Of a stretch of DNA of 64,000 nucleotides, positions 9,891 to 52,349 are shown piece after piece. The notes beneath the pieces are model-generated. The model was not told the DNA's origin and did no database searches. It saw nothing but the letters and a program-made list of their open reading frames with translations. The stretch's first letter is position 1. Each line of letters opens with the position of its first letter. The position numbers and the translations under genes were made by a program. The DNA comes from an uncultured Phycisphaerales bacterium. Its GTDB lineage: Bacteria; Planctomycetota; Phycisphaerae; Tepidisphaerales; Tepidisphaeraceae. The stretch is taken from contig CAVWLP010000002.1 in NCBI GenBank assembly GCA_963755915.1, positions 2,144,001 to 2,208,000 on the forward strand, in the 5' to 3' direction.

Positions 9891-10198
9891 CGCAACGTAG
9901 GCGGAGGCGTCGCCCAACCCCCAAAGGCCAATTCGCTCCGGCTAGGGATGTCGTTGGCACATCGCTCGCGAACGATGCGGACTTCACGCGGGCCGAATCG
10001 AAATGACGCCCTCGCCCGCTGATGCTCCAATTCACGTCTAACACCGACGGTTGAGTGCTCCTCTCCACGGAAGACAGCGGTGCCAGAAAGCCGTTGTCTT
10101 CTGAGGTGGAAAATGCCGGTCGAACTTTTATGGCGCGTGATACGATTTCCGGGGGAAGGTAAGTTGTGCAGGTCGAGGGCAATGTCGAGAATACCAGG

Positions 10199-49562: not shown

Positions 49563-50342
49563 GTGCTCATCCAGTTCCAGAACACGCAGGAAGACTTCAA
49601 GGAGCTTGGCGACGCCATCACGGCCGCCCGCCGCCCCGTCAATTCGCCCATGCAGATCGTCATCCTCGTCGCCGTTTTCGGGGTTTACTACTTCGTCACA
49701 CGTTATCTATGGATTAAAGCGGGAGACCTGGACGGCCAGAATGCCTGGATCAACATGTGGATCGCCATCGTCGCCTTCGGCTTCACCTGGCTCGGCATCT
49801 CCCTCCCCTCCAGCTTCCGGGCCCGCCGATTCCCATGGCTTACCGGCCGCCAGGTCGTCTCCCTCTCCACCTTCCTGGGCCTCATCGGCGCCCTCCTCTT
49901 CGAGCACTGGCTCAACCACAAGTTCAACCCCAAGGCCCACGCCGACACCCTCACCTGGCAAGTCCTCCTCCCCCACAGCATCTGGCTCACGATCATGTTC
50001 TATGTGGCCTGCATCGGCGCCTACAACCACAGCAAGTCTCTGCCACGCCATTGGCAAAACCGCCCCGACCTCCATCGCCATCAGTCGGTCGATATCTCAG
50101 CCCAAGGCGTAGTCTTCTCTGACACTGAGACCCGGCGGGAATATCACTGGCCCGCCTTTGTAAAGGGAGAGGAGACACGGCACCTGTTTCTGCTCTTTAC
50201 CAGCGAGCACATCGGGCTGATGCTGCCCAAGAGGGCCTTTGACTCCGATGAGCAGATGGAGGCGATGCGGAATTTGATGAAGCTGATTCCCAAATCCGAA
50301 ACCCGCGGGTTCGCGGTCCTCCCGGCGGCCAAAGCCGCCTAA
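49563..50342 (+). CDS. Membrane protein with YcxB-like C-terminal domain
   Basis: Several TM helices; YHW...ET..LFLL...LPKRAF. Confidence 0.75.
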   Translation: MLIQFQNTQEDFKELGDAITAARRPVNSPMQIVILVAVFGVYYFVTRYLWIKAGDLDGQNAWINMWIAIVAFGFTWLGISLPSSFRARRFPWLTGRQVVSLSTFLGLIGALLFEHWLNHKFNPKAHADTLTWQVLLPHSIWLTIMFYVACIGAYNHSKSLPRHWQNRPDLHRHQSVDISAQGVVFSDTETRREYHWPAFVKGEETRHLFLLFTSEHIGLMLPKRAFDSDEQMEAMRNLMKLIPKSETRGFAVLPAAKAA

Positions 50343-50473
50343 GAATTTCGAACCCGCCCAGAACCCCCAGTAACCTTTCCCAACAAGCCTGAGCCGGGCC
50401 GTCCCCGGCCCGATCTTCCGCCTTTCCGCGTCCACACCAAATGCTATCGCTTTCTCTTTCTTCTATGGCAACA

Positions 50474-50531
50474 TTGTCTCTTCTTGCGCTCTTGGCGACT
50501 TAGCGGTTAAAAATCTTTCTAACCGCCAAGA
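50474..50531. repeat. Palindromic repeat split by the IS110 element (remainder at 52017-52040)
   Basis: Left arm ttgtctcttcttgcgctcttggcgacttagcggtt is complementary to the reconstructed aaccgccaagacgccaagagcgccaagaaagacaa. Confidence 0.8.
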
Positions 50532-50642
50532 AACTATGAAGCCGAGCCTTTCTCGGGACGTGAACGGGGTCAAAATGCCCCAAGTATGAACGAGCGTACC
50601 GCGTAGGTCGCTCAAACGTCTTTTTTGAGAAAGGACTCGGCA

Positions 50643-51686
50643 ATGCGAATTCTCGCTTTGGACCTGGGAAAGAACAAGAGCGTTTTTGTGGATTATGTCA
50701 CCGGCGGTGGAGAAAGAACGTTCGGCAAGATCGGCACCAATGCCCACGAGGTGCAAAAACTACTCGAGCGGGTGCGTCCGGATCGACTGGTCATCGAGGC
50801 CGGTCCGGCGGCAGGATGGGTTTGTGATCTGGCGGAGCGGAACAATGTTCCCGTCCAGGTGGCCAATGGCAACGATGAACGCTGGCGCTGGAAGACGGTG
50901 AAGGAGAAGAGTGATCGTAAAGACGCGCTGAAGATGGCGGCGATGTCGGAGATGGATTCGCTGCCGACGGTGCACGTGCCCAAGGCATCGGTTCGGCAGT
51001 GGCGTTCATTGATTGAATACAGACACGGCCTGGTGGATCGCCGCACGGTGCTCAAGAACTCGATCCGATCAATCTACGAGCGGCAGGGTTTGTATTTGCC
51101 CTCGGCGACCAAGGCGTGGACGAAAGCGCGACTGGAGGAAATGAGGAAGGAAGCAGCGGCCGCATCGGCGGAAGATCTGTGGCTGTTTCAGATCGGTTGT
51201 GAGGTGGCGCAACTGGAGCACCTGGAGAAGCAGATCGAAACTGTCGAAAGCAAGCTTCAGGAGTTGGGCCAGGCCAACAAAGCGGTGAAACGATTGCAGG
51301 AGGTGCCCGGCGTTGGTCCGCGGCTGAGCGAGGCGGTGGCGGTGATCATTGATGATCCCAGGCGATTCAAGAATGCACGTCAGGTGGGATGTTACGTGGG
51401 TCTGACGCCGCGGCGCTGGCAGAGCGGCGACAGCGATCGCCAGGGGCGGATCAGCAAGGCAGGCAACGCGCTGCTGCGGGAGTTGCTGGTGGAGGTGGCG
51501 TGGCTGGGGGTTCATCGCAATACGTGGATGAAGGACGTGTACGAGAGGGTTCTACGTGACAGCGAGAAGCGCAAGAAGATCGCGATTGTTGCGGTAGCCA
51601 GGAGATTACTGGTGAAGCTGTGGGCGATGCTGCGGGACGGAACCCGATGGAGAGAACCCCAGCGATCGCTGACGGCGGCCACTTGA
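50643..51686 (+). CDS. IS110-family DEDD recombinase/transposase
   Basis: ALDLGK, IEAG, KSDRKDA, VPGVG, YVGLTP..QSG, GRISKAGN and AIVAVARRL motifs. Confidence 0.95.
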   Translation: MRILALDLGKNKSVFVDYVTGGGERTFGKIGTNAHEVQKLLERVRPDRLVIEAGPAAGWVCDLAERNNVPVQVANGNDERWRWKTVKEKSDRKDALKMAAMSEMDSLPTVHVPKASVRQWRSLIEYRHGLVDRRTVLKNSIRSIYERQGLYLPSATKAWTKARLEEMRKEAAAASAEDLWLFQIGCEVAQLEHLEKQIETVESKLQELGQANKAVKRLQEVPGVGPRLSEAVAVIIDDPRRFKNARQVGCYVGLTPRRWQSGDSDRQGRISKAGNALLRELLVEVAWLGVHRNTWMKDVYERVLRDSEKRKKIAIVAVARRLLVKLWAMLRDGTRWREPQRSLTAAT

Positions 51687-51699
51687 AAATCGAAAAGGC

Positions 51700-51990
51700 G
51701 ATGACTGTCCCGACAAGTCGGTACAGGCGATGGAGTATCTCCCCTCCGGAAGACACCGTGTCAGAAAGCCGTTGTCTTCTGTGCAGGGGATTGAGTAGAG
51801 TTGAAGTGAAGTGGAATTGACGCGTTCGTGCAGGTTGAATGAGCAAGGCCAGACCCCGGTTGGCGTCTTAAGCTTCAAAGCTTGCCGCTAAGAATAGGGC
51901 TGGCCATTTGTACAGTTGAATAGGCCCGCCGCCAGGCGAGAGCACTGAATAGAAGGCTCACCCAATCGACCGCATGAGCGATCAACGCCC
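51700..51990 (+). ncRNA. Predicted bridge/seek RNA of the IS110 element (ends uncertain)
   Basis: Stem 51847-51856/51897-51905 encloses target-matching segments 51860-51869 and 51885-51893 around hairpin 51870-51883. Confidence 0.75.
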
Positions 51991-52139
51991 CTTGACAAGG
52001 CTCGGCTCATAGAAGACGCCAAGAGCGCCAAGAAAGACAAAGAAAACGCCCCGCTTCGGGGCGTGGCTATCAATCGAGCCGACCGGCTGTTTCTGATCCG
52101 GCCCCTCTCGGCAGAAATGCCTGATTCAGTCGGCGGCCA

Positions 52140-52349
52140 TTAATTCGCCCGCACCGCCTCAAATCCATCGCACCCGCTCGCGGGGGTCACCTTGAGATGC
52201 AGCGAGGCGTGCCTGGGATGCGCACAATCATCGACAAACGTCTCCGGCGCCTTACGACTCGTGCGAATCTCGACCAGCTTGGAATCCTTCGAATGCTCTT
52301 CGCCAAAATGAGTGCACAGCCCGCATTGTCCGCTATGAAGTTGCAACAT
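52140..52349 (-). CDS. Small four-Cys protein
   Basis: AAGGAG RBS; QCGLCTHF...DCAH...VTPASGCDGF. Confidence 0.7.
   Translation of the reverse strand: MLQLHSGQCGLCTHFGEEHSKDSKLVEIRTSRKAPETFVDDCAHPRHASLHLKVTPASGCDGFEAVRAN

Follow-up and report, generated by a model that had tools for sequence, protein, structure and literature searches.

A probable seekRNA gene in the right end of an IS1111-type element with a fixed insertion point in a REP-like palindrome

The locus studied here raised the question of whether the non-coding DNA downstream of a transposase gene encodes an RNA that reads both the insertion site and the ends of its own element. It lies in a stretch of 64,000 nucleotides (the window, to which all coordinates refer) from the genome of an uncultured Phycisphaerales bacterium, where the first-pass annotation had proposed an IS110/IS1111 recombinase followed by a readable RNA guide. 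In IS1111 elements, seekRNAs are encoded 3' of the transposase gene (tnp) and co-purify with the transposase; within them, the match to the top strand of the target stands 5' of the match to the bottom strand, and the two overlap in the target (PMC11187229). A bridge RNA architecture was predicted for 93% of the IS1111 elements in ISfinder (PMC11208160). For the element of the window, it is very probable that the 3' non-coding end is a seekRNA or bridge RNA gene of an IS1111-type element, reading the target repeat and the element's own ends.

The recombinase gene (50643-51686, plus strand) encoded 347 amino acids, with a DEDD RuvC-like N-terminal domain and a PF02371 C-terminal domain containing GLTPRRWQSG, a form of the motif GL-P----SG. 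Both Pfam domains scored above their cut-offs (PF02371, 86.2 bits against 21.3; PF01548, 38.9 bits against 29), as did the NCBIfam model NF033542, "IS110 family RNA-guided transposase" (215.2 bits against 140). The C-domain resembled the transposases of ISCro4 (9t56) and IS621 (8wt6; E 1e-16 for IS621), and the matches to these IS110-group proteins in the PDB spanned the C-domain only. Residues D91, D94, G253, L254, P256 and S261 were invariant in seven relatives, while D7 and E52 of the translation are presumably catalytic residues, by analogy. Judged from its sequence, the protein is an IS110-family RNA-guided transposase, and its length falls within the 330-350 amino acids expected of IS1111.

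Comparison of 22 empty and nine occupied sites placed the element at 50531-52015 (1485 bp), with an ambiguity of about 1 nt at the cut point because AAGA is common to the element and the target. The genome (6.6 Mb in three contigs) contained nine copies, 99.2-100% identical, all with open frames and with identical 330-nt right ends, in agreement with the earlier description of the element as intact. All copies shared one insertion point in a REP-like palindrome made of CGCCAAGA units. Empty sites read TAACCGCCAAG directly followed by ACGCCAAGAG, while occupied sites read …CCGCCAAG+AAACTATG… at the left and …CATAGAAG+ACGCC at the right; the difference between the two was the element plus a single copy of the common AAGA/AG, with no target duplication. 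The palindrome family (TTTCTTGGCGCTCTTGGCGTCTTGGCGGTTA-loop-TAACCGCCAAGACGCCAAGAGCGCCAAGAAA, exemplified in the window by 50470-50530 together with 52016-52040) included, in the genome, 22 exact and unoccupied versions of the insertion site, and the same repeat occurred in a related metagenome-assembled genome (MAG). Just beyond the right flank, the minus strand carried a hairpin resembling a terminator (ACGCCCCGAAGCGGGGCGT) with a run of T after it (52046-52064).

The left half of the target (…TAACCGCCA-AG) ended with the left copy of the core, AG (50529-50530). The element began with AAACTATG, a start found also in 24 of 39 related families, and continued into a subterminal inverted repeat (CTATGAAGCCGAGCC; left end 50531-50548, common to all nine copies) that is the inverted repeat of 51999-52012. 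At the other end, the right subterminal repeat GGCTCGGCTCATAG was followed by A and the right core AG (51999-52015, core at 52014-52015), such that the element finished with CATAGA plus AG before the right half of the target (ACGCCAAGAGCGCCAAGAAA, 52016-52035). The repeats paired as CTATGA(A)GCCGAGCC with GGCTCGGCTCATAG, in keeping with the subterminal repeats of about 11-17 bp and short extensions at the termini that characterize IS1111; the exact published scheme of 7/3-bp terminal extensions was not reproduced. The rule that the last two nucleotides of the left flank equal nucleotides 2-3 after CATAG was true in 26 of the 39 families; ten of the 13 exceptions belonged to a subfamily with ATCCATG/CATAGTCG ends and provisional bounds. 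Non-coding DNA amounted to about 112 nt at the left (50531-50642) and 329 nt at the right (51687-52015), a longer non-coding region downstream of tnp being a criterion for IS1111 (PMC11187229, PMC11208160). Based on the subterminal inverted repeats, this split of non-coding DNA and the lack of target duplication, the layout of the element is IS1111-type as far as sequence can tell, and the family assignment of the first-pass annotation was thus upheld by the domain matches and the layout alike.

The right non-coding end harbored a target-binding loop (51847-51905, plus strand), in which an outer stem formed by GGCCAGACCC (51847-51856) and GGGCTGGCC (51897-51905) enclosed two single strands and an inner hairpin. 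The first strand, the right-target guide UUGGCGUCUU (51860-51869; TTGGCGTCTT in DNA), was complementary over 10 nt, without mismatch, to AAGACGCCAA at the right junction (52013-52022) and would pair with the top strand, A-AG-ACGCCAA. It was followed by the inner hairpin AAGCTTCAAAGCTT (51870-51883) and by the left-target guide CCGCUAAGA (51885-51893; CCGCTAAGA in DNA), which has the same sense as CCGCCA-AG-A, would pair with the bottom strand, and equalled CCGCCAAGA of the left junction (50523-50531) at eight of nine positions; at the ninth, a U stands opposite a bottom-strand G and forms a wobble. When the letters were re-extracted, the stem, the guides, the inner hairpin, ATAGAAG and the GCTCA/TGAGC hairpin described earlier were all found where they had been placed. 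The earlier reading of the T variant in the left guide as a match to the other arm of the repeat held over 8 nt (CCGCTAAG) and for the left arm of this copy only, the consensus arm having C.

The 314-nt non-coding end was shuffled 3000 times with its dinucleotides preserved: 11 of the shuffles contained an exact complement to the right junction of at least 10 nt, and none contained that complement together with an 8/9 left match 8-45 nt downstream. The 73-nt loop region folded at -30.8 kcal/mol (z -3.3), a value equalled in one of 200 shuffles. In its minimum-energy fold the two target guides paired with each other, which is unavoidable since the target is palindromic. The RNAalifold consensus of 20 families displayed the outer stem, the inner hairpin and two unpaired 10-nt strands, with 15 pairs, 12 of them with compensatory changes on both sides; L102 and L131 (long inner hairpins) and L090, L094, L096 and L105 (best placements off the loop) were left out of this set. 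A covariance model built from the 20-family alignment (R1) had a single match in the 64-kb window, at 51843-51908 on the plus strand (57 bits), and a scan of 50300-52200 with Rfam covariance models, at E values up to 10, returned chance matches only (CRISPR-DR19, snoRNA models).

Among 401 genomes from the phylum that were searched, seven gave matches, the genome of the window included; the scan of species genomes turned up a 91% relative, in four copies (L053-L056), in an uncultured Phycisphaerales MAG and a 51% relative (L057) in a Pirellulales MAG. A metagenome scan with the seven-protein alignment (A1) reported 517 relatives, from which 80 loci were kept. In all, 97 loci were examined, of which 56 had both junction anchors and 50 had usable flanks, leaving 39 non-redundant families. 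Two more distant families of IS110-family transposases were present in the genome itself (L043-L052; 31% and 22% identity, six and four copies).

The two loop strands tracked the flanks of their own elements. At fixed columns in 20 families, matches to the own flanks averaged 12.7 of 19, against 7.1 +/- 2.5 for the flanks of other families (8.05 against 3.46 at the 13 variable positions), and the observed total was reached in none of 20,000 permutations; columns 2-9 of the left-target strand equalled the own left flank in 15-20 of the 20 families. Because the segments of this test had been cut with the own flanks, it was repeated on independent rows: at columns fixed by R1, nine rows outside the training set and with both flanks gave on average 14.7 of 19 own matches against 8.5 +/- 2.3 (n = 252). 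These rows are partly dependent, L061 being another copy of a training family and one target being common to L096, L099, L100 and L101. The model matched 46 of 82 sources, in every case on the strand of the transposase gene, and missed 36, among which were L059 (at 49% identity) and the majority of the subfamily with ATCCATG ends. Exact matching, with both guides correctly placed and at least 14 nt, succeeded in 18 of 39 families with their own flanks against 82 of 1482 cross pairs, and gave no correctly placed double match in eight of the 39. When guide pairs were sought freely with mismatches allowed, own targets were not told apart from foreign ones (median 12 for own, 11 for cross; scores of 13 or more in 10 of 22 own pairs and in 38 of 462 cross pairs). 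The right-target strand matched poorly in L083, L085 and L144, and its register moved by one base in several families. Covariation between guides and targets, which the first-pass annotation had proposed as a check, was thus found in about 20 relatives with unrelated targets, and since the strands track the own flanks in these elements, they are, on this comparative evidence, guides rather than a captured fragment of the repeat.

Close relatives displayed natural retargeting. The genome contained 22 empty sites of the register used by the element and 19 of the neighbouring register; all nine insertions were in the former (…CCGCCAAG followed by ACGCC…), and no junction words of the latter (…ACGCCAAG followed by AGCGCC…) were found in this genome. 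The 91% relative occupied the neighbouring register in all four copies, its insertion shifted outward by one repeat unit (…ACGCCAAGA on one side, GCGCCAAGA… on the other). Its right end (L053) differed from that of the element in the window at 20 of 329 columns, three of which were adjacent letters of the right-target guide (51866-51868); its guide reads …GCGCUCU and its insertion lies before GCGCCAA. A further relative with 77% protein identity (L076) was inserted in a different repeat (CGCGAAG). It differed at 125 of 353 columns, with only three guide letters among them (51862, 51866 and 51889), and its flanks, CCGCGAAG and GCGCGAA, were exactly as these three letters predict: the right-target guide UUCGCGCCUU accompanied an insertion before GCGCGAA, and the left-target guide CCGCGAAGA a left flank CCGCGAAGA. 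The stem of its inner hairpin was retained through nine substitutions (GGGTT…AACCC). The recombinase had been called potentially reprogrammable in the first-pass annotation; the relatives bear this out as re-direction by nature, the support being natural rather than experimental. The series parallels the natural re-direction described for ISEc11 and ISXne4 (PMC11187229), and three close relatives retargeted by nature, one through a shift of a single repeat unit, amount to a ready-made specificity experiment.

On the donor side, AUAGAAG (51949-51955, plus strand) runs in the sense of ATAG-A-AG at the right end (52009-52015), with whose bottom strand, core included, it would pair. The corresponding word, found in relatives through the conserved context box [CT][CTG][GA][GA]AT[AG]G alone, was identical to the word at the right end of its own element in 35 of 39 families, with 12 different words represented; cross pairs agreed in 282 of 1482 cases. 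Because of this tracking, ATAGAAG, which the first-pass annotation had offered as a possible donor guide, is, by sequence comparison, a left-donor guide directed at the right end and the core. It was followed by the hairpin GCUCA…UGAGC (51956-51979; arms 51956-51960 and 51975-51979), with a hairpin at the same place in L078 and L083 (GUUGAACCAAUC). In L092 and L093 the internal donor word was AAAG, the integrated right end AAAA or AAAT, and the left junction kept AG; the core copies of these elements differ, as if the target core had mismatched the donor core. In the metagenome contig of L088, the right end was followed directly by AAACTATGT…, which is left-end-like and may represent a tandem or circle-like junction.

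The candidate for the second (right-donor) guide was UACAGUU (51911-51917, plus strand), directly 5' of a conserved GAAUAGG (51918-51924). It would pair with the left end's top strand, AACTATG (50532-50538), with one C-A mismatch, one G-U and four contiguous pairs, and its counterpart in L053, UAUAGUU, had no mismatch to the left end. Of 22 rows, 13 had full complementarity between left-end positions 2-5 and the four nucleotides that precede GAAUAGG, five had it at three of the four positions and four at two or fewer, with compensatory changes in L107 (GGGU/ACCC), L118 (GGAU/ATCC) and, by eye, L060. When the sequence upstream of the donor guide was searched freely for complements to the left end, the own mean was 4.03 and the control mean 4.01, with a small excess in the 15 families with unusual left ends only (4.3 against 3.3). 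Since this search was without enrichment, the chance that UACAGUU is the second donor guide is put at about even. The candidate stops short of the core; the corresponding donor pairing of IS621 is likewise discontiguous (PMC11208160).

Between the two donor strands a short hairpin, CGCC GCCA GGCG (51927-51938), was predicted by folding, with longer equivalents in L078, L083 and others, in which the closing triplets covaried (GGG/CCC, GAG/CUC). RNAalifold returned only two pairs for the donor-side alignment of 14 relatives, because this middle hairpin varies in length, and the donor-side structure is accordingly based on single folds and reading of the alignment. In the predicted folds of relatives both donor strands were single-stranded between hairpins, which fits the published remark that many IS1111 RNAs keep their donor-binding letters in a multi-loop (PMC11208160).

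The loop might also resemble its target because the element carries a piece or a mimic of the REP palindrome, for instance a terminator-like hairpin, the likeness being a by-product. Both guides are indeed pieces of palindrome arms, mutually paired in the minimum-energy fold, and a 10-nt complement arose already in the 11 shuffles mentioned above. This explanation is hardly credible in view of L057, L078, L079 and L151, whose targets are non-palindromic and whose strands match their own flanks and not each other; position-fixed tests far exceeded cross-family values, and the three close relatives differ in just the letters that their targets require. As for ATAGAAG, it might be what is left of a duplicated right end, or a box bound by a protein, given that ATAG occurs in two further conserved GAAUAGG boxes (51892-51898 and 51918-51924) and that the commonest word (AAAG after AT) accounts for 13 of the 39 families, making the identity partly inherited. 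The 12 words that track the own right end include the rare ACGG, AATG, ATGA, GACG and AGAA, and the strand lies single-stranded between two hairpins in the folds of relatives, which makes a leftover or a box very unlikely.

A different objection concerns the molecule rather than the matches, which could act at the DNA level, through pairing of a single-stranded end with the target, or be read by protein alone, this copy giving no functional RNA; sequence alone does not separate RNA from DNA in this respect. Against this, column pairs 17/55 and 28/44 were G-U or U-G in 18-19 of 20 families, a pattern that fits an RNA of the plus strand only, and RNA co-purified with the transposase and was needed in trans in four IS1111 members and IS621 (PMC11187229, PMC11208160). 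A role at the level of DNA or protein alone is highly improbable on these grounds.

The reading preferred here, a seekRNA gene in the right end, can be laid out as a mechanism. The anatomy of the element, its bounds, its conserved structure, the covariation of guides with targets and ends, and its choice of site were observed directly. By analogy with the characterized elements, the RNA would be made, bound by the recombinase and used to direct the reaction. The non-coding end of this active-looking element would encode it at about 51800-51985; both target guides would span the AG core, the presumed place of strand exchange, and two more single strands in the multi-branch region would read the joined ends of the element. 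The RNA-bound DEDD/serine recombinase would then insert the circularized element between CCGCCA-AG and ACGCCAA, without duplication.

Circularization could also provide the promoter. No sigma-70-like promoter was found in a scan of the integrated copy, and the only terminator-like site was outside the element on the minus strand. A conserved -35-like box, TTGACA (51992-51997, plus strand; alignment of 14 relatives), lies 17 nt ahead of the element's final base, such that a circle junction would form the promoter TTGACA-17 nt-GAAACT, present in the circle only; a junction promoter of this kind was reported for ISEc11 (PMC11187229). Among the 20 sequencing runs listed, two were RNA libraries, with small shares. 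Metatranscriptome contigs covered 51646-51850 (X9, identical) and 51818-52016 plus nine flank letters (X20, an L053-like variant); such contigs carry neither strand nor RNA ends, and DNA carry-over is possible. Contigs from X9, X20, X5 and X1 displayed no circle junction and no joints, the parts that they leave uncovered being uninformative.

Compared with published systems, the element most resembled ISEc11, ISKpn4, ISPst6 and ISPa11, with which it shares a putative RNA 3' of tnp with the same order of matches and overlap in the target, as well as subterminal inverted repeats and insertion without duplication (PMC11187229). The likeness was closest to ISPa11, which targets REPs (PMC11187229). 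It differed from the published IS1111 seekRNA elements in its host lineage, the nearest relatives being from Phycisphaerales and Pirellulales MAGs, and in its target repeat. Multiple copies at a fixed REP point are also known for ISPpu9 and ISPpu10 of Pseudomonas putida, whose circular intermediates have been described; the downstream small RNA of ISPpu9, Ssr9, was reported dispensable for transposition (PMC12288879).

The architecture shares with the IS621 bridge RNA two guide-bearing regions, for target and donor, half-sites that are each read on one strand, and guides covering a 2-nt core (PMC11208160); the proteins, both DEDD plus serine recombinases, have similar C-domains. Unlike in IS621, the putative RNA lies in the right and not the left end, and the right guide comes first, the reversed order known from IS1111 (PMC11187229). 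The core is AG instead of CT, and the candidate right-donor guide is short of it. Where IS621 has a simple internal loop (PMC11208160), the donor guides appeared to lie between hairpins in a multi-branch region. It is possible, though doubtful, that the donor side works unlike that of IS621 and that a conserved hairpin upstream of the loop (51726-51781) is a portable RNA module. Within that reading, the right-end guide may span end and core, the left-end guide may pair over 4-7 nt and stop short of the core, which may instead face the invariant GAAU box, and both donor guides may sit in the multi-branch junction.

The element is very probably an ordinary further case of the class of RNA-guided recombinases described in 2024, and bridge-editing screens may find a new orthologue in it. 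It is a natural case in which the targeting of an RNA-guided recombinase can be read cleanly, in a lineage that has received little study (planctomycete-like soil bacteria), and comparison fixes its bounds, its core of 2 nt, the two target guides and one of the donor guides. The picture of the mechanism is unchanged, since the class, the right-end location, REP targeting and natural re-direction are already in print.

The upstream hairpin (CCCCUCCGGAAGACACCG…CGUUGUCUUCUG…GGGG; 51726-51781, plus strand, identified by folding) had hardly changed in close relatives, with no differences to L053 and four to L076 (125 of 353 columns overall). It is a 56-58-nt structure (…CCGGAAGACACCG…CGTTGTCTTCTG…) just 3' of the recombinase gene, with no Rfam match. 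About 40 short matches to it in the genome were considered as related IS110 elements and rejected, their open reading frames proving to be of IstA/IstB type. Two IS21-family (IstA/IstB) elements of the same genome, with 31 and nine copies plus one diverged, contained a stretch with 84-86% identity to it near their 3' end (L031, L032, L033). The hairpin also occurred alone twice in the genome, and its loci include about 10058-10103 of the window and C3:786237. The elements that share it are IS21-family, as identified from translations alone, and being IS21 rather than IS110 they are useless for guide covariation. The hairpin could serve processing, stability or termination and have been picked up by different transposons.

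A relative with 36% identity (L061, L062, L065-L074) was inserted in a near-perfect palindrome, TAGAGCA-GTT-TGCTCTA. Most copies of this relative were followed by a repeat of about 110 nt with an ending like that of their own right end (…GATGCTCTAG), perhaps representing a solo end or else a miniature derivative.
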